DNA of 64,000 nt, taken from Candidatus Palauibacter ramosifaciens. Its GTDB lineage: Bacteria; Gemmatimonadota; Gemmatimonadetes; Palauibacterales; Palauibacteraceae. The translations under genes were made by a program, and so were the position numbers. Under the pieces are notes generated by a model that was not told the DNA's origin, searched no databases, and saw only the letters and a program-made list of their open reading frames with translations. Where the stretch lies: NCBI GenBank assembly GCA_009845855.1, contig VXYT01000112.1, positions 8,472 through 72,471 on the forward strand, given 5' to 3'. Every line of letters begins with the position of its first letter. Position 1 is the first letter of the stretch. This document shows positions 37,627-46,695 of the stretch, piece after piece.

Positions 37627-39994
<2,368 letters not shown>

Positions 39995-39998
<4 letters not shown>

Positions 39999-41167
39999 GC
40001 GATCAGCCGTCCATTGCGCAGGCGCCAGCGCGCGAGCTTCCCACCTAACAGCCCTACGTCACCGGGCTTGGGCGCCGTGAGAATCACCTGACCGCCCCGC
40101 TCGGACTCGAAGAGGCGAAACAGCCGGTCGGAACGTCCCTCGTCGAGTTCCGCAAACACGTCGTCGAGGACGTACAGCGGCTCGCGGCCGAGCCGTTCCC
40201 TGAGCCGATCCGCTTCGAGCAGGCGCAGGGCGAGCGCTGCCGTGCGCTGCTGTCCGCTCGACCCGTAGCTCCGGAGGTCGCGGGGGCCCTCCGGCGCCTC
40301 GACTTCGAACCGGATCTCGTCACGGTGCGGGCCCACCACGGTCATGCCCTGCCGACGCTCACGTTCTCCGGCCCTCTCGAGCGCGTGTCGAAAGCGGTCC
40401 TCCCACGACACCGCGCCCTCCGCACCGTCCGTTCCGCCATTCGAAGCGATCGAAGCCGAATACCGAAGCCCCGCCCGGTCTCCTCCCGAGATCCGTGCGT
40501 AGAAATCGGCGTATCGCTCCGCCCCCTCCGACACCCACTCCGCCCGCCTTTCCGTGAGGACTCCGCCCGCCTCGATCAACCCTTCCGTCCACGCTTCGAT
40601 CTCGTCGTTCGACCCGCCGCGCCGCAGCGCCTCGTTCCGCTGCGACAGAAGACCCCGGTAGCGCTGCAGCGCCGGCAGGTAGCCCACCACGCCCACCGAG
40701 AGCGCGACGTCGAGGAAGCGACGCCGCAGCGTCGGCCCTCCGCGCACGATCTCGGCGTCGTCGAGGCGGAACGCCGCGACCCCCACCGAGCCGATCCCCG
40801 CCGAAACCCGCTCCACCTCGAGCGCGTCGATCTCGACCTTCTTGATCCGTTGAGACCGGTCGTAGGCCGCAGCCACGGACATCCCCCCCTCCACCTCACC
40901 TTCCACCCGAAACACGGTCTGTCCGAACCGCACAAGGTCGCGGTCCCGCACGCCTCGAAAGGACCGAAAAACCTCGAGGTAGCAGATCGCCTCGAGGAGG
41001 TTCGTCTTGCCCGATCCGTTGGGCCCGATGATCGCGACGCCGGCTTCGGGAAACTCGCATTCGAGTCGTTCGAAGTTGCGGTAGTCGCGCAGGATCAAGC
41101 GCCTGAGAAAAGGCGCGGAGGACGCCTCGGGCTGGCGGATGGGCGGTGCCTCCGGTGTCTTCGTCAC
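39995..41167 (-). CDS. recF: DNA replication and repair protein RecF
   Basis: LRRLILRDYRNFERLE...IIGPNGSGKTNLLEAICYLE is Walker A. A C-terminal signature LSSGQQRTAALALRL and a Walker B LYVLDDVFAELD are also present. Confidence 0.9.
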
Positions 41168-41292
41168 AGGCTTGTGAAAATACGGCGAAAAGCCTTATAC
41201 CGCAAGGAAATTTGTCCGTTGGAGGCCTTCTCCGGAAAGCACCGCCGAGCGGTTGCCCGAGAGGCTCCCCGCAGGCAGCTTCGAAGACGTCC

Positions 41293-42135
41293 ATGACACG
41301 CCTCGACCGCCGCGGCGCACGCCGCCCGATCACGCGAAACAGAGCCCTGCGAGGGGCGGTCTCCTCCCTCGGGTTGGCGTGGCTCCTGTTACCGGTCCAC
41401 CTCGCCGCGCAGACCGTTGAAGCGCCTCCGGATTCGCGGACGCCGGGCGCGAGCCGGATCGGGCGGGATATCGCCCTCGCGGCAGGCGTGCTCGGCGGCA
41501 CCTTCCTCCTCGACGAGCACGTCCGCAGCCTGGCGCTGGACCATCAGGGCACGTTGGGACGTGATCTGGCCGAGGCGGGCCACACGTACGGCGACTGGCA
41601 GCGGACCGCGCCATTTCTCGCCGGGGGCGGGATTCTGCTCGGCGTCGCGTTGGACGGGGAACGGGGCGTCCGGCGGGCGACCTCGGCCTTCTTCGGCGTC
41701 TTCGCCGGCTCGATGTCGAACACCGTCCTCAACTGGACGCTGGGACGAAGCCGCCCGAGAGACGAGCGGGGCGTCCTGCACTTCGACCCCTTCCGGGGCA
41801 ACGCATCGCTGGGTTCCGGCCATACGGCCTATGCCTTCGCCATTGCCGCCGCCGTCGATGAGGTGACCGACGGCGGGTGGGCGATCCCCTTCTACGCGGC
41901 CGCCGCGGGCACGGGAATCGCCCGCATCTACGGAGACCGCCACTGGCTTTCCGACGTGGTCGTCGGCGGCTTCATCGGCTGGTGGGTGGGCGGCCGGGCG
42001 ACGGCCGCCGCCGCGGGCTGGCTCGGGATCGAACCCTCGTCCGCCGCCCCCGGAGTCTCTCCTTCCGCCCGCGCCCGGATCCGTCCGCTGATCGCCGGGG
42101 ACGCGCTGGGCGTTCAGGTCCGCTTCCGGGAGTAG
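41293..42135 (+). CDS. PAP2-family membrane phosphatase
   Basis: Shows the three PAP2 motifs: GRSRPRDE (KxxxxxxRP), PSGHTAY and GDRHWLSDVVVG (SRxxxxxHxxxD). The ATG at 41293 sits before the signal/TM region. Confidence 0.8.
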   Translation: MTRLDRRGARRPITRNRALRGAVSSLGLAWLLLPVHLAAQTVEAPPDSRTPGASRIGRDIALAAGVLGGTFLLDEHVRSLALDHQGTLGRDLAEAGHTYGDWQRTAPFLAGGGILLGVALDGERGVRRATSAFFGVFAGSMSNTVLNWTLGRSRPRDERGVLHFDPFRGNASLGSGHTAYAFAIAAAVDEVTDGGWAIPFYAAAAGTGIARIYGDRHWLSDVVVGGFIGWWVGGRATAAAAGWLGIEPSSAAPGVSPSARARIRPLIAGDALGVQVRFRE

Positions 42136-42187
42136 CTCCCGAGGCGCCTTCGAGTGGCTCGGGCGGACCGGAGCGGGTGATGCCGCC

Positions 42188-42727
42188 TCAGGGCCCAGCG
42201 TCCGGGAGCAGCGATGTCCTCCAGGCCTCCAGCTGCCTGATGGTATACTGTCGCCTGAGCGGTCGGCGCGGACGTACGCCGACACTCGTCGCCAGGGCCT
42301 CAAGCGAAACAACTCGATCGAGCCATCCGAGTGCGTGAGCCGCCGTTACTGCCGCCTTGTCGCAACTACACAGGATGAAGCCATCTGCCAGCATGTATGC
42401 CAACGCCAACAAGTCGCGCTCACCGGCGTCGAGGCGGTGGGCATCGGGGTACTGCAAACGAAAGGTGACGTCCGCTGCGCTGGACAGCGTTCTCACGGTG
42501 GCGCGGGCGATGTCCTGTTCGCGCACTGGGACGTACCCGCGCATGGAAGGATCGCCGCGCCGCAGTTCTTCCGCACACTCCTCGACTGTGACGATCTGTC
42601 TGCCACCGGCCACGGCGTTCCAGCAACCGGTATCCACCGCCTCGATGACGATCATGGTGTCCACGAGTACGATGTCGTTCGGGGCGAAACCTACGGGTTC
42701 ACGCCTCGAAATACGTCTCGTGGCCAT
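42188..42727 (-). CDS. PIN-like small protein (DUF4411-like) coupled to the upstream XRE/ImmA gene; candidate toxin/nuclease partner
   Basis: Its first 29 nt overlap the upstream gene's 3' end. N-terminus NDIVLVDTMIVIEAVDTGCWNAVAGG resembles the PIN/DUF4411 start, with acidic residues positioned as in PIN folds. Confidence 0.45.
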   Translation of the reverse strand: MATRRISRREPVGFAPNDIVLVDTMIVIEAVDTGCWNAVAGGRQIVTVEECAEELRRGDPSMRGYVPVREQDIARATVRTLSSAADVTFRLQYPDAHRLDAGERDLLALAYMLADGFILCSCDKAAVTAAHALGWLDRVVSLEALATSVGVRPRRPLRRQYTIRQLEAWRTSLLPDAGP

Positions 42728-43823
42728 AACCTCGGATGAGGGAAACGAGATCCGCCAACGACAGGCCGAGCAGAGTAGCCGCCCGCCTTACGGAGAGGCG
42801 ACCAGCATCCAGGGCTACAACGACGCGATCGATGAACGGCTTGCTGAATGCCGGCACTTCGGGGGGGGGATCGGTTGTGTGCCCGTTGGCCACGAAGCGC
42901 CGGTCATCGATCTCCGCGAGATCCGACCCTGCGAGCAGTCCGGCGTTGTGAAGACGCCACTTGCAGGCCGTTCCGGAGACGCGGAAATCGTCCGCGATCT
43001 CATTGATCCGCTGGTGGATGCCGGTTTCCCCCGCCGACCGCTCCCACCGCTGCCGCAGCATCTTCTCGGGCATGAGGATCGCGGCGGCGAAGTTCTCGGC
43101 AAGTCGCTCGACACGCCACCCCTTTCCGGTTCTTGGAACGCTAACGTCTTCGGTCCGCTCGGGTGGCATTGCGTCCCACGTCAGCAGATGAAACAGCTCG
43201 TGGGCCAGGTCGAAGTTCCGACGTCGTTCAGGATCGTTACGATTAACCAACACACAACTCAGCCCGGGAACCCTCGAGGCTGCACCGGAAACGCCAGGTG
43301 GTGTGTCGACATCGAGCACCAGGATTGAGGCGCGGCTCTCCATGGCCGAACGCAGCTTCGCCGCGGGGCACGAGCCCAGTTGCCAGCGATCAGCTACCGA
43401 CTCCCCGGAGGCTTGGGCGTCCTCGAAGGATGATCCGGCCGTGAGGGCCAGCTTGGACTCCAGCCACCGCGGCTCAAAACCCTGCTCCAGGGAGAGCTCA
43501 CGGTACATGGCAATCCAGCGTCCCGCGCAATCTTCGAAGTCGTCGAGCACCGCACCCGCGACGCCCGTACTCGTCCTGAACGAGAACTGGCCCTCGCCCA
43601 CGAGTCGAAAGGGGTCGGTGAAGTAGTCAAGATCGACCCCGAGCACGTCCATGGCGCTGACCAGTTCCCTCGCGCTCAGAGGTCGTTCCCCGGATTCGAT
43701 GCTGGCAATCGTCTGCCGATGCCGGAGGCCTAAGGCGCCGGCAAGTTCCTCTTGCGTCAGGCGAGCGCGTTTTCGGGCCGCCCTGAAACGGAGGCCAACG
43801 CGAGGATCGGATGCCAACGACAT
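42699..43823 (-). CDS. XRE-family HTH fused to ImmA/IrrE (COG2856) zinc metallopeptidase domain
   Basis: N-terminal HTH: RLTQEELAGALGLRHRQTIASIESGERPLSARELVSAMDVLGV. Central HExxH: FDLAHELFHLL. The 374-aa architecture matches ImmA/IrrE-like anti-repressor proteases. Confidence 0.8.
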   Translation of the reverse strand: MSLASDPRVGLRFRAARKRARLTQEELAGALGLRHRQTIASIESGERPLSARELVSAMDVLGVDLDYFTDPFRLVGEGQFSFRTSTGVAGAVLDDFEDCAGRWIAMYRELSLEQGFEPRWLESKLALTAGSSFEDAQASGESVADRWQLGSCPAAKLRSAMESRASILVLDVDTPPGVSGAASRVPGLSCVLVNRNDPERRRNFDLAHELFHLLTWDAMPPERTEDVSVPRTGKGWRVERLAENFAAAILMPEKMLRQRWERSAGETGIHQRINEIADDFRVSGTACKWRLHNAGLLAGSDLAEIDDRRFVANGHTTDPPPEVPAFSKPFIDRVVVALDAGRLSVRRAATLLGLSLADLVSLIRGYGHETYFEA

Positions 43824-43826
43824 AAA

Positions 43827-43861
43827 TGCAATCTATTCTTGCATCAAACGATTTGCAATCT
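43827..43861 (-). promoter_or_regulatory. putative autoregulatory operator: palindrome ATGCAA-N6-TTGCAT plus a direct repeat TGCAATCT x2 in an AT-rich patch immediately upstream of the XRE/ImmA start
   Basis: Palindrome arms at 43827-43832 and 43839-43844. TGCAATCT occurs at 43828-43835 and 43854-43861. The local GC is far below the ~70% background. No SD is present, so a leaderless mRNA is possible. Confidence 0.4.
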
Positions 43862-43930
43862 CACACGCCATGGAGACGGTAGGTGGACCGGAAGACGCCA
43901 CGCCGTCCTCCGGTCCGTTTGGGGCGCACA

Positions 43931-44918: not shown

Positions 44919-45791
44919 TCAGCGGAGGAGCTTCCGGTGCCACGGTTCCTCGGCGCTGCGAAGATTCTCGCCGCGTTCGAGTCGGTCCAGAAGACCCTGA
45001 AGCGCGAGTTCCATCCGCTGCCTGACCTTCCGCATGTCGGCCCGCGCGGACACCGCCGCGATGGCCGTGAAACCCGAGAAGATCGCCAGTCCTCCCATGA
45101 GCGGCAGGATGCCGCCCCCCGTCGCCATGAACAGGCCGAAACCACCGGCCGCTCCACCCAGTCCCATCCCGGCGAACCAGCCGCCGAGCCGCTCCGCCCT
45201 CATGTTGCCGACGTCTGCCGTCAGCGTGACGAGCGACCACCCACTCTCCAGGGCTTCCACGCTGACCTGGAGGTTCCGCGACTTCGCGAGCGTGTACCGT
45301 CGGCCGCCGACATCCATCGCGCGGCGCATCTGGCTGACGAGGCCGGTCCCCGGCTCCCAGAGCGATCCGCCCGGTCGCGACCGTACCTGCCGGAGAAGCT
45401 CCTCTTCGCGCAGGTACGATTCGAGATTCGCTTCCACATCCGCGGGACTCCCGGGCACCACGCGGCTCGTGCTCACGATCGCGGGACCCACGATCCGGCG
45501 CGCGAGCCCCTCATCGGCAGGCGCATCCGGGATGAGGGAGGCGGCTTCCACCTCGGCCAGCGCCTGCCGGACGTAGCGCTCCTCGATCCCGACTTCCGCT
45601 CCGATCTGGACGACTTCGCCCGCCCCGAGTTCCCCGCCGACCGAGGTGGAACTGCGGAACTGGAGATCGGACGCGCGCCGGATCACACGTTCGAGTTGCT
45701 CCTGCGTGACCGTGCGGGGCAGCGACGAGCGGCGTGCCGGGGGACCGGACTCGCCTGAACCCTCGCGATCCTCGTCAGCCGGCGGCATCGC
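44919..45791 (-). CDS. hypothetical membrane protein co-transcribed downstream of the SPFH gene
   Basis: A soluble N-terminal region is followed by a Gly-rich TM region: [43 protein letters not shown]. The likely start ATG at 45791 overlaps the SPFH stop by 17 nt. It is not a canonical NfeD. Confidence 0.45.
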
Positions 45792-46695
45792 GCTCCCTTG
45801 CGACCGCCTCCGGCTCGTCCGCCGCCTCCGGTACGTCCTCCGCGGCCTCCGCGCCGGGCAACCGCGGCGCGCCGCCCTCCGAGCCTTCGAGCACGCGTTC
45901 GTCGACCGGAGCCGGAGCCTCGGACGCATCGTCGGCCGCGGTCGCGATTCCCTTGAACAGACCCACCATCGGGCCGAGTTCCACGGGAAGCGGGAAGAGC
46001 GTCGTCGAGTTGTTCTCCGCCGCGATCTCCGTCGCCGTCTGCAGGAAACGAAGCTGCAGCGAGGCCGGGTATTCGCTCAGCTGGCGCGCCGCGTCCCGCA
46101 GGTTCGACGCCGCCTGCAGCTCGCCCTGCGCGTTGATCACCTTGGCGCGCCGCTCGCGTTCCGCCTCCGCCTGCCGGGCGATCGCCCGCTTCATCTCGTT
46201 CGGCAGGTCTACGTCCTTCACTTCGACGCCCGTGACGTCGATCCCCCAGGCGTCCGTCCCCTGGTCGATGATGTCGCGCAGAATCTGGTTGAACTTCTCG
46301 CGCTCGGCGAGGACCTCATCCAGTTCCGCCTGCCCGATGACCGAGCGCAGTGTCGTCTGGGCAAGCTGCGAGGTGGCGAACAGGTAGTCCTCGATCTCGA
46401 GGATGGCCCGCCGGGGGGTCGCGACCCGGAAATAGAGGACCGCGTTGACCTTCACCGACACGTTGTCTCGCGTGATGACGTCCTGCGGCGGGATGTCCAT
46501 CGCGATGATCCGCAGGCTCACCCGCTCCATGCGTTCGACCCCGAACGGGACGAGGAAGATGAGCCCGGGCCCTCGGGTCGGACGCGCACGGCCAAGGCGG
46601 AAGACGACGGCCCGTTCGTATTCCTTGAGGATGCGGAGACTCGTCGCCAGCGCCAGCGCGCCCGCCCCGGCGAGGATGAAGAATAGAGGATCCAT
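45775..46695 (-). CDS. SPFH/band-7 (stomatin/prohibitin-like) membrane protein
   Basis: [36 protein letters not shown]... is the SPFH domain. A coiled-coil tail follows: [29 protein letters not shown]. The ATG at 46695 has SD GGAGGGAG. Confidence 0.85.

Follow-up and report, generated by a model that had tools for sequence, protein, structure and literature searches.

A predicted HTH-M78 peptidase and PIN-nuclease gene pair in Candidatus Palauibacter ramosifaciens as a probable two-gene conflict cassette of the RosmerTA type

Does a compact two-gene unit lodged between housekeeping genes serve the neighbouring metabolism or does it constitute a toxin-antitoxin (TA) or phage-defence module? 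This question is raised by a locus of Candidatus Palauibacter ramosifaciens contained within a 64,000-nucleotide stretch of contig VXYT01000112.1, referred to below as the window. The upstream gene, ORF A, encodes an HTH domain and an M78 peptidase in a single polypeptide, and the downstream gene, ORF B, encodes a small PIN-like protein. Pairs of this kind, HTH-M78 plus PIN, have been predicted since 2009 and have been grouped with RosmerTA and CapH/CapP. Assignment of the pair to this already described class of TA/phage-defence modules, as a further example, is well supported, and we consider it probable that the two genes make up an independent conflict cassette of the RosmerTA type, the counterpart of a CapH-CapP fusion accompanied by a VapC-like gene, and that they act through the mechanism proposed below. 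For genome annotation, the pair is to be read as an ordinary accessory conflict module and not as a housekeeping regulator.

Table 1. Features of the locus, in window coordinates.
Feature	Position	Strand	Description
PAP2 gene	41146..42135	plus	
Inserted/variable segment, whole	42149..43929	minus	hairpin, promoter-operator, ORF A and ORF B; homology break relative to L055, low GC
ORF B, 179 aa, ATG start	42188..42727	minus	PIN-domain (VapC-like) nuclease, predicted toxin/effector
ORF B residues 19-148, PIN core	42284..42673	minus	structure model and conserved acidic residues
ORF B acidic residues	D23 42659-42661; E54 42566-42568; E103 42419-42421; D123 42359-42361	minus	
ORF A 3' end/ORF B 5' end overlap	42699..42727	minus	29 nt
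ORF A, 374 aa, ATG start	42699..43823	minus	XRE-HTH, M78 zinc peptidase and C-terminal three-helix domain
ORF A residues 328-365	42729..42842	minus	C-terminal three-helix HTH-like domain; structure model
ORF A residues 133-304	42912..43427	minus	M78 peptidase core; HELFH and E239
ORF A residues 76-83, GEGQFSFR	43575..43598	minus	linker-strand motif, conserved across phyla
ORF A residues 7-69	43617..43805	minus	XRE-type helix-turn-helix DNA-binding domain
-10-like TAGATT (43830-43835) overlapping third TTGCA half-site (43827-43831)	43827..43835	minus	read off the sequence
Palindrome TTGCA-N10-TGCAA	43839..43858	minus	predicted operator for ORF A HTH dimer; unique in window, recurs in homologues
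Hairpin	43885..43916	minus	13-bp stem, just past hbd stop codon; RNA fold
hbd (3HCDH_N + 3HCDH)	from 43931	minus	

Both halves of the HTH and ImmA/IrrE-type peptidase fusion proposed in the original prediction are borne out by Pfam, HTH_3 matching ORF A residues 14-68 (E 7e-11) and Peptidase_M78 (PF06114) residues 189-288 (E 9e-13, 48.6 bits against a cut-off of 22), with no further domain reported C-terminal to the peptidase. The HELFH sequence occupies residues 208-212 (43188-43202) and E239 lies downstream (43107-43109). H208, E209 and E239 are invariant, and H212 nearly so, in an alignment of 44 close sequences (A3); among 30 distant ORF A sequences the first three residues are retained in 30/30 and H212 in 29/30, being replaced by R in L001. 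In these distant sequences a [LC]-A-[EDN]-x-F-[ATS] motif precedes an invariant L-M-P. Judged by its sequence, ORF A is an M78 peptidase, possessing HEXXH, a downstream Glu ligand and a Pfam score above the gathering cut-off. The PADLOC RmrA model PDLC03949 matches residues 12-365 of 374 (E 7.6e-25), 14 more RmrA models and the capP model match as well, the best full-length matches are RmrA and the phage family phrog_2439, and the structure model resembles CapP, PprI/IrrE, ImmR and CapH.

Two further regions of ORF A are conserved over long distances. Across 30 sequences from six phyla and plasmids, comprising the window and 29 related loci, the linker motif reads G-E-[GA]-x-[FV]-[SAN]-[FWY]-R; E77 and R83 never vary, and position 82 always holds an aromatic residue (F, W or Y). 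In A3 both F82 and R83 are invariant. CapP, once bound to ssDNA, cleaves CapH at F82|R83 (preprint 10.1101/2022.04.27.489752), and by analogy F82-R83 is a candidate self-cleavage site of ORF A. Downstream of the peptidase, the structure model contains three helices (residues 328-339, 345-352 and 356-365) in which a loose pattern, G-x-[LVIT]-S-x-[RKQM]-[RK], is kept across phyla; this C-terminal domain gives a weak PDC-S70 match, and weak HTH_37 matches are found in ORF A paralogues. This domain may serve to bind the toxin or to form dimers.

ORF B had been described as PIN/DUF4411-like, a description of which the first part stands and the second does not. Structure prediction gives ORF B a PIN alpha/beta/alpha fold, and the acidic residues, whose placement relative to the strands is taken from the structure model, are conserved: D23, E54, G102, E103 and D123 are invariant among 50 distant family members, and in loci and plasmids D23, E54, D100, G102 and E103 are present in 48/48 and D123 in 47/48. 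The persistence of D23, E54 and E103, and very nearly of D123, over such distances argues for a catalytic protein. Sequence profiles detect little of this relationship. Pfam yielded no match to ORF B at E<=1, PIN-clan models and DUF4411 (PF14367) included, and among the 50 family members Pfam PIN weakly matches 2/50 (best E 0.001) and PIN_3 2/50 (best E 0.019). Membership of DUF4411 is rejected, PF14367 matching neither ORF B at that threshold nor any of the 50 members at E<=0.1. PADLOC models, RmrT included, gave no ORF B match at E<=1 and only weak PDC-S70 matches among the 50 members, and the family profile produced one chance-level match (E 1.7) against all PDB sequences. ORF B, which has about 30 extra C-terminal residues compared with VapC, may correspond to Matelska's PIN_14, a family absent from Pfam. 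The position of its start codon is uncertain. ATG 42727 is the sole canonical start that takes in the first beta-strand; it arises from an ORF A Tyr codon (TAT), the syntenic relative L001 has ACG in its place, and public gene calls place the start later, giving 155 or 158 aa.

The fusion gene overlaps the 179-aa ORF by 29 nt, as had been reported, and GAGG is present at 42730-42733, 2 nt ahead of the ORF B ATG; the overlap and this sequence suggest translational coupling of the two genes. The 45 nt preceding the ORF A ATG contain 37.8% GC compared with 68.7% for the window, and within them lies the palindrome TTGCA-N10-TGCAA, the single match in 64 kb where 0.02 would be expected. The same palindrome closely precedes the ORF A homologue in 27 loci, other phyla included, occurs in three plasmid loci (L135-L137) and is found in 0/80 recF loci which lack the pair. 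Its left arm is also a -35-like TTGCAA (43853-43858), followed after 17 nt by the -10-like TAGATT, itself 6 nt ahead of the ORF A ATG and conserved among the upstream sequences compared. The spacing of this hexamer from the ATG suggests that the ORF A-ORF B mRNA is leaderless. The two hexamers of this putative promoter match the sigma-70 consensus at 8/12 positions, and a consensus promoter scan with a threshold of 9/12 reported no promoter.

ORF A and ORF B are strictly paired and have co-evolved. In every related locus that could be assessed, ORF A immediately precedes ORF B, so the conservation of the small gene beside the fusion gene that had been anticipated is indeed observed, and ORF B was never seen apart from ORF A. 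For locus scans the broad alignment (A2) was too diverse and a closer alignment (A1) was used. The pair is found in Gemmatimonadota, Acidobacteriota, Verrucomicrobiota, Lentisphaerota, Nitrospirota and Pseudomonadota and on five plasmids, in differing neighbourhoods and always as a unit of just two genes. In 52/52 related loci measured, 29-52 nt separate the ORF A stop from the ORF B D23 codon, and the sequence identities of the two proteins correlate with r 0.96 over 47 loci. At the level of sequence, the pair fits the generic traits of type II TA systems, namely a compact bicistron, a palindromic operator, a scattered distribution, changing surroundings and plasmid-borne copies.

The pair is accessory and mobile in character. 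As the original prediction had stated, its neighbours are PAP2, which is convergent with the unit, and hbd, beyond which lie recF, dciA and gyrB in turn. A metagenome scan with recF returned L055 as the only close relative (recF and hbd 94% identical to the window), so the presence/absence comparison comprises this one locus and more distant ones. The pair is absent from the site in L055: homology ends at 43930 and resumes at 42148, and an unrelated 444-bp segment takes the place of the pair. At 63.6% GC, the module is the lowest 1.8-kb stretch of the window. The AT-rich promoter had been offered as a sign of acquisition; it is AT-rich as described but is not by itself evidence of acquisition, because it is a conserved functional element here, and the case for acquisition rests on the other data. 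Scans of the entire 64-kb window for tRNAs and against Rfam were both empty, which speaks against a tRNA-linked island and against an antitoxin made of RNA. Decayed copies, in which ORF B has suffered an internal deletion, occur at four loci, ORF A remaining intact in one of these, L052, and both genes are under purifying selection. The hbd neighbourhood of the pair is retained only in Palauibacter, within which the pair appears to be vertically inherited at the hbd-PAP2 site. Such inheritance, together with the housekeeping neighbours, would also fit a domesticated regulator.

One of the closest known systems is RosmerTA, in which a Zn-peptidase antitoxin with diverse toxins confers phage defence (Millman et al. 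2022; Ernits et al. 2023). An rmrA deletion could not be transformed and RmrA was shown to be the antitoxin; toxin partners are swapped, and an ImmA node is linked to PIN-like toxins. The pair resembles RosmerTA in consisting of two genes with an HTH plus ImmA/M78 Zn-peptidase protein that matches RmrA profiles, but differs in that ORF B has no RmrT profile match and the characterised RmrT toxins, of unknown function or membrane-depolarising, are not PIN nucleases. In its domains and their order, with HTH and DUF955 fused in the first gene and a short PIN-like gene of one domain behind it, the pair is identical to the HTH-DUF955(COG2856)-PIN "three-component" TA modules predicted previously (Makarova 2009; Matelska 2017: DUF4411.1, COG2405, PIN_14, PIN_20, PIN_26), although ORF B is not DUF4411 by HMM and a separate third Xre gene is lacking. 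Compared with VapBC, the antitoxin is a 374-aa enzyme-containing regulator instead of a small AbrB, RHH or Phd protein, and ORF B falls below the Pfam PIN thresholds. In CapH/CapP, repressor and peptidase are encoded by separate genes located upstream of, and divergently from, the defence operon that they regulate, whereas ORF A combines both in one polypeptide and shows no recognisable GAF-like sensor domain, the pair runs in the same direction as, and inside, the operon where it is associated with defence genes, and the window copy regulates no defence operon. The ImmR/ImmA (ICEBs1) and DdrO/IrrE (Deinococcus) systems, in which an M78 peptidase inactivates an XRE repressor upon DNA damage, share the folds of ORF A but comprise two separate proteins, control mobile-element or repair regulons and have no nuclease partner. 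In the literature searched, no experimentally characterised HTH-M78 plus PIN pair was found.

Combined, these observations lead us to propose the following mechanism for a RosmerTA-type cassette. A dimer of ORF A, predicted to be autorepressor, sensor and antitoxin in the manner of RmrA or of a CapH-CapP fusion, would bind TTGCA-N10-TGCAA over its own AT-rich promoter as an XRE-type repressor, so that expression of the bicistronic and probably leaderless operon is kept low. By analogy with the neutralisation of its toxin by RmrA, ORF A probably also keeps ORF B, a putative metal-dependent PIN-domain ribonuclease, inactive. A stress signal, by analogy with CapP, IrrE and ImmA either infection by a phage or damage to DNA (sensed, for instance, as single-stranded DNA), would activate the M78 peptidase. 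Self-cleavage of ORF A, in cis or in trans, would follow, and its likeliest site is F82-R83, immediately C-terminal to the HTH. The cut would result in derepression and in a PIN nuclease that is freed or over-produced, and this presumably toxic enzyme would cleave cellular or phage RNA, causing growth arrest.

In other phyla the pair occurs inside BREX and DISARM operons and in or next to type I R-M operons, and it is also found inside DISARM-like operons. In these defence-embedded homologues it is co-directional and internal to the operon. In plasmid loci the end of ORF B overlaps the beginning of drmA, so that transcription from the ORF A promoter would extend into the defence genes downstream, and downstream genes in BREX and DISARM-like loci are arranged for co-transcription in the same way. 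No DISARM genes were detected in Gemmatimonadota loci by tblastn with the plasmid DrmA and DrmB, and the helicase and MZB genes in those loci are only DISARM-like. A literature search on BREX with ImmA and PIN found nothing relevant. This embedding, along with the variable contexts, L055 without the pair, the ORF B-deleted copies and the plasmid copies, fits and supports the proposed TA or abortive-infection-type module. A further, tentative possibility is a portable self-cleaving sensor-effector switch, in which ORF A, as a single-chain CapH-CapP equivalent, would cut itself at F82-R83 on sensing infection or DNA damage and would thereby, in a single step, derepress a leaderless operon and unleash a PIN family lacking a Pfam model; the same switch and operator would have been inserted into the BREX, DISARM and type I R-M operons of Verrucomicrobiota, Lentisphaerota and Alphaproteobacteria as a built-in gate or abortive-infection back-up, and would act in Palauibacter as an autonomous two-gene module near replication-origin genes.

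A purely transcriptional stress switch of the CapH/CapP, DdrO/IrrE or ImmR/ImmA kind is a reading which we consider unlikely. ORF A would repress and inactivate itself without acting as a TA antitoxin, ORF B would be an inducible effector or RNA-processing enzyme that is not neutralised by contact, and elsewhere the switch would gate BREX/DISARM genes. The structural likeness of ORF A to CapP, IrrE, CapH and ImmR, the overlap of operator and promoter and the predicted co-transcription of drmA and other defence genes are consistent with such a role, and CapH-CapP fusions accompanied by a vapC-like gene have been noted at DISARM systems, where the fusions were described as regulators (Lau et al. 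2022, 10.1101/2022.04.27.489752). However, the constant pairing and correlated divergence of ORF A and ORF B are more than a promoter-target relation requires, decay removes ORF B internally while ORF A can stay intact, as expected of a toxic gene, and the untransformable rmrA deletion of RosmerTA also argues against it. Moreover, the window copy, near which there are no defence genes, has nothing downstream to regulate since PAP2 is convergent.

Reversal of the roles is highly improbable. According to this scheme ("COG2856 toxin, Xre antitoxin") the M78 peptidase would be the toxic component, the HTH a cis-antitoxin and ORF B a catalytically irrelevant PIN-like adaptor. COG2856 was the predicted toxin in Makarova 2009, and GNAT-fused ORF A paralogues have lost HEXXH, which shows that certain relatives can do without the peptidase. 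Against this, the acidic residues of ORF B are conserved as described, RmrA is an antitoxin, and the gene that decayed copies have lost by deletion is ORF B and not ORF A. Even harder to credit is a remnant of prophage or integrative-element immunity, an ImmR-ImmA-like repressor and anti-repressor left after decay. COG2856-Xre genes are common in prophages (Makarova 2009), ORF A matches phrog_2439 and GC is low, but the pair is flanked by no integrase, attachment repeat, phage gene or tRNA (the whole window has 0 tRNA genes), the unit is limited to two genes in all contexts and purifying selection acts on both. Phage origin was dropped because ORF B has no relatives among IMG/VR contigs, BFVD structures or INPHARED phages. 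The least credible reading, that ORF A is a PrpR/RamB-type (short-chain acyl-CoA) metabolic regulator of the adjacent fatty-acid genes (hbd, thiolase) with ORF B as an unrelated passenger, is contradicted by the unrelated genes or defence operons that surround the pair outside Palauibacter, the intact and invariant HEXXH, the full-length matches to RmrA and phrog_2439 compared with an NCBIfam RamB score of 27 bits against a cut-off of 700 and confined to the HTH, the relative with the same hbd and no pair, and an operator found only ahead of ORF A.

For a RosmerTA-type conflict module, the pair and its relatives form a clean family with a defined operator, a candidate cleavage site and intact catalytic residues in both proteins, and natural variants are available as stand-alone, BREX/DISARM-embedded, decayed and GNAT-fused forms, the latter with a dead peptidase. 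The family could reveal how a peptidase-containing antitoxin senses infection and how BREX/DISARM operons are gated or backed up.

Just past the hbd stop codon lies a hairpin. A terminator scan found a single terminator-like site, inside ORF A, and did not call the hairpin, which has no U-tract. The hairpin folds with -28.4 kcal/mol (z -1.8) and is conserved in L012, and it is possibly a terminator that insulates the cassette.

ORF A, which encodes a helix-turn-helix (HTH) domain and an M78 Zn-peptidase of the ImmA/IrrE (COG2856) type, and the PIN-like gene downstream, ORF B, are both found on the minus strand with a 29-nt overlap, as originally predicted. The prediction of housekeeping neighbours is also correct, as the pair lies between the phosphatase-family gene PAP2, followed by recF, dciA and gyrB, and the 3-hydroxyacyl-CoA dehydrogenase gene hbd, followed by a Band_7 gene and a thiolase gene. 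An AT-richer promoter, likewise predicted, is evident as 37.8% GC in the 45 nt preceding the ORF A ATG compared with 68.7% window-wide, and the module itself, at 63.6%, is the lowest 1.8-kb stretch in 64 kb. Interpretation of the pair as a toxin-antitoxin or abortive-infection-type module is supported by the intact motifs, pairing, operator and accessory, defence-linked distribution described below.

Coordinates of features in the window and in related loci (L-numbers)
Feature	Location	Coordinates	Strand	Description
Mechanically listed ORFs	window	37627-39998; 39995-42135		some overrun likely genes
PAP2	window	41146..42135	plus	neighbour of module
ORF B	window	42188..42727	minus	179 aa
ORF A	window	42699..43823	minus	374 aa
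Palindrome	window	43839-43858		TTGCA-N10-TGCAA
Hairpin	window	43885-43916		perfect 13-bp stem directly after hbd stop codon; -28.4 kcal/mol, z -1.8
hbd	window	from 43931	minus	neighbour of module
336-aa ORF	window	44919-45929	minus	between hbd and Band_7 gene; no Pfam match
Membrane-like protein gene	L055	6578-7072	minus	fills hbd-PAP2 gap; no Pfam match
Decayed module copy	L052	6001-6200		ORF A intact; ORF B without residues ~47 to ~165 (E54, E103, D123 gone)
Decayed module copies	L053, L054	5100-6300		both genes truncated; internal deletions in ORF B
Decayed module copy	L048	5900-6200		remnant only
Pair-containing operon	L040	78-11693
Pair-containing operon	L050	1449-8238
Pair-containing operon	L042	4923-11141
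Pair-containing operon	L044/L045	1332-11158
Pair-containing operon	L039	4890-8849
DISARM plasmid loci	L135, L136, L138			drmA/drmB context

Scans of the whole window (1-64000) for tRNA genes and for Rfam families at gathering score were both empty. The ORF listed for gyrB is extended N-terminally by ~85 aa, overlapping dciA, and gyrB is divided into two gene calls in the syntenic locus L001. The starts of the PAP2 ORF and of recF share 22 nt, and PAP2 homology sets in only from residues 11-47 on. At the position of the 336-aa ORF, L001 has a 255-aa gene, also without a Pfam match.

The domain identities and intact catalytic motifs of both proteins are established at the level of sequence. In ORF A, HTH_3 (residues 14-68) and Peptidase_M78 (189-288) both exceed the Pfam gathering score, and over its full length the protein is matched best by the PADLOC model of RmrA, the RosmerTA Zn-peptidase antitoxin (PDLC03949; E 7.6e-25 over residues 12-365), by capP (E 4e-17) and by phage family phrog_2439 (E 2.6e-33); ORF A is an M78 protein of the RmrA type. 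In an AlphaFold2 model built from 44 homologues (pLDDT 85.7), the XRE helix-turn-helix (7-69) is followed by a short strand (79-84) and a long helix, then by the peptidase core (~133-304) and, C-terminally, by a bundle of three helices (328-365). All 44 close sequences have H208, E209 and E239, and nearly all have H212; the 30 sequences taken from plasmids and six phyla agree (30/30, and 29/30 for H212). These 30 also have in common a motif just C-terminal to the HTH, G-E-[GA]-x-[FV]-[SAN]-[FWY]-R, in which E77 and R83 never vary and an aromatic residue always occupies position 82; the motif spans residues 76-83 of the window's ORF A, with F82-R83. Residues 333-367, within the C-terminal domain, weakly match the uncharacterised defence candidate PDC-S70 in PADLOC (E 0.022), as do 7 of 50 ORF B family members (best E 3.4e-4).

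ORF B itself gave zero matches in Pfam, NCBIfam, PADLOC and PHROGs, and its family profile found nothing among PDB sequences. Among 1.84 billion representatives, profile searching recovered 687 clusters at E<=1e-3, mostly proteins of ~165 aa. D23, E54, G102, E103 and D123 are invariant columns in 50 distant members, and in 48 locus and plasmid sequences D23, E54, D100, G102 and E103 are present in all and D123 in 47. In the structural model the conserved residues follow strand 1, lie in the helix after strand 2, begin the helix before strand 3 and follow strand 3; by position along the modelled strands this is the PIN active-site pattern. The original description of ORF B as PIN/DUF4411-like is upheld for a predicted PIN fold, given this pattern and the conserved acidic residues, and not for DUF4411, which none of 50 family members match. 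Pfam PIN or PIN_3 is matched weakly by only two of the 50. ORF B has a predicted PIN fold, fails the RmrT, Pfam PIN and DUF4411 profiles, and represents a PIN family that these profiles do not cover; it may belong to Matelska's PIN_14. Its start is less simple. ATG 42727 is the sole canonical start 5' of the first strand (I19-V22) and arises out of an ORF A Tyr codon, TAT; L001 has TAC for this codon, which gives ACG in the ORF B frame. Across the family ORF B starts 4-14 nt past the ORF A stop, an interval with no start codon in the window. The strand-1 region is probably translated, as between-locus codon changes there are synonymous or conservative, and the 179-aa reading appears most likely, though not certain.

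Pairing of ORF A with ORF B is obligate. Looking up the contigs of five ORF B homologues gave eight loci, all with an HTH-M78 gene directly upstream, and scanning a single genome per species gave 46 loci, mostly in Gemmatimonadota (Candidatus Palauibacter, Longimicrobiales, Longimicrobium) and otherwise in Thermoanaerobaculia, a Betaproteobacterium, Verrucomicrobiota (including an Akkermansia MAG), Victivallales and Nitrospiraceae. By tblastn, ORF B is conserved beside its partner, ORF A lying immediately 5' in every locus with upstream DNA. Identities of the two proteins covary from 92/90% down to 45/35% (Pearson r 0.96, 47 loci), 29-52 nt separate the ORF A stop from the D23 codon in each of the 52 related loci measured, and both genes are under purifying selection (dN/dS 0.14-0.37). 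The pair occurs on five plasmids (Burkholderia, Methylocystis, Acidibrevibacterium, Sinorhizobium, Rhizobium), three of them conjugative, and in none of the phage or viral contigs searched. The cassette has the generic features of a type II toxin-antitoxin system.

The minus strand 5' of ORF A reads gaTTGCAaatcgtttgaTGCAAgaaTAGATTGCAtttATG. It contains the palindrome TTGCA-N10-TGCAA, a single match in 64 kb against 0.02 expected. Twenty-seven related loci, some of them from Verrucomicrobiota, Nitrospiraceae and Thermoanaerobaculia, have an identical palindrome 30-60 nt 5' of ORF A, compared with 0/80 recF loci without the pair; plasmid loci L135-L137 have it as well. Conservation identifies it as a predicted operator, to which ORF A would bind. 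Its left arm forms a -35-like TTGCAA, followed after 17 nt by TAGATT, a hexamer that shares bases with a third TTGCA half-site and lies six nt 5' of the ATG. This hexamer-ATG geometry is kept in Gemmatimonadota loci, suggesting a leaderless transcript. A consensus scan reported no promoter, as the hexamers match at just 8/12 positions. The hairpin after hbd lacks a U-tract and is part of the inserted segment, conserved in L012 and absent from L055.

The gene order hbd, pair, PAP2, recF, gyrB is common to the window and five Palauibacter loci (L001, L010, L012, L013, L052). Comparison of close relatives revealed presence and absence at this site: metagenome contig L055, whose recF and hbd are 94% identical to the window, equal to pair-carrying L012, has no pair. 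Homology between window and L055 breaks off at 43930 and restarts at 42148, and the 444 bp between the breakpoints in L055 carry an unrelated 164-aa membrane-protein gene. In more distant recF loci hbd adjoins recF directly. Four loci contain decayed copies (see table); that the nuclease gene is lost while its partner is kept would be expected of a toxic gene and provides indirect evidence of toxicity. The membrane-like gene family (~164-186 aa; also in L001, L010, L013, L052, L009, L014-L018, L022, L026, L027 and L054) is absent from the window and L012. Many loci of Palauibacter and Longimicrobiales have it 0.1-5 kb 3' of ORF B, in the opposite orientation, which probably reflects an old shared chromosomal neighbourhood rather than a functional link. 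A second conserved chromosomal site is the end of a 2-oxoacid:ferredoxin oxidoreductase operon, directly 3' of which the pair is found in Longimicrobiales L005, L014, L015, L016, L020, L022 and L029; the gene 5' of the pair has the same ending in each, with a TPP_enzyme_C domain in L005 and L029.

The distribution of the pair is accessory and defence-linked. In Gemmatimonadota it is mostly alone among housekeeping genes, and outside this phylum it is embedded, co-directionally, in methylation-based defence operons. In annotated DISARM systems on three plasmids it lies between the methylase and drmA, whose start overlaps the ORF B stop. In L040, L050 and L006/L028 it adjoins an Eco57I-type methylase and a giant helicase fusion with MZB (DUF1998) and MTES_1575 nuclease domains, loci which are DISARM-like. 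BREX systems are represented by L042, in which PglZ and BrxL follow, and by L044 and L045, in which the pair lies between a PglX-like methylase and PglZ. An HTH-HsdM gene (type I R-M) follows in L039, and the L008 locus is an island that also encodes HsdR and several toxin-antitoxin proteins.

Combined, these data are consistent with a model in which ORF A would bind the palindrome and repress the operon, and would also neutralise ORF B in the manner of RmrA with its toxins. A signal may activate the ORF A peptidase, as ssDNA does CapP (10.1101/2022.04.27.489752) and DNA damage triggers IrrE and ImmA, and the activated peptidase would cut ORF A C-terminal to the HTH. F82-R83 is the obvious candidate site, since CapP cuts CapH between F82 and R83 (10.1101/2022.04.27.489752) and ORF A has an invariant aromatic-Arg at the equivalent place. 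The PIN nuclease, released or induced, would then cleave RNA and stop growth. The main alternative, that the pair acts only as a transcriptional switch of the CapH/CapP kind and ORF A does not neutralise ORF B as a protein, is rather unlikely. It fits the homologues embedded in defence operons but is a poorer explanation of the obligate co-evolution of ORF A and ORF B, of the ORF B deletion pattern and of a window copy that has no downstream gene to control. Three further readings are each highly improbable: a metabolic regulator of the PrpR/RamB type, a remnant of prophage immunity, and an exchange of roles between the two proteins.

The cassette belongs to a known class, as the arrangement of a PIN gene after a fused HTH-COG2856 gene was earlier predicted to be a "three-component" toxin-antitoxin system (Makarova 2009), with DUF4411.1, COG2405, PIN_14, PIN_20 and PIN_26 later catalogued as partners (Matelska 2017). 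Literature searches found no experimental study of any HTH-M78/PIN pair. What the cassette adds to this class is a predicted operator, a candidate site of cleavage, natural variants and a PIN family that the profiles do not cover. From sequence comparison it would work like the HTH-COG2856/PIN modules, RosmerTA and the "vapC-like gene plus CapH-CapP fusion" noted at DISARM (10.1101/2022.04.27.489752). It differs from RosmerTA in that ORF A fits the RmrA profile whereas ORF B fails that of the toxin, RmrT. RosmerTA Zn-peptidase antitoxins, with swappable toxins, have been shown to give phage defence, and an rmrA deletion could not be transformed. A PIN-to-GNAT toxin swap by fusion is what the close ORF A paralogues P0294, P0299, P0304, P0308, P0310, P0312, P0319 and P0323 look like. 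These proteins of 547-553 aa are ~62% identical to ORF A across all 374 residues and carry a C-terminal GNAT acetyltransferase domain, detected by scanning P0294 and P0308 and from precomputed Pfam domains in the other six. P0308 has lost the HEXXH motif (AHELFH to ADALFH) and has R in place of E239, indicating that its peptidase is dead.
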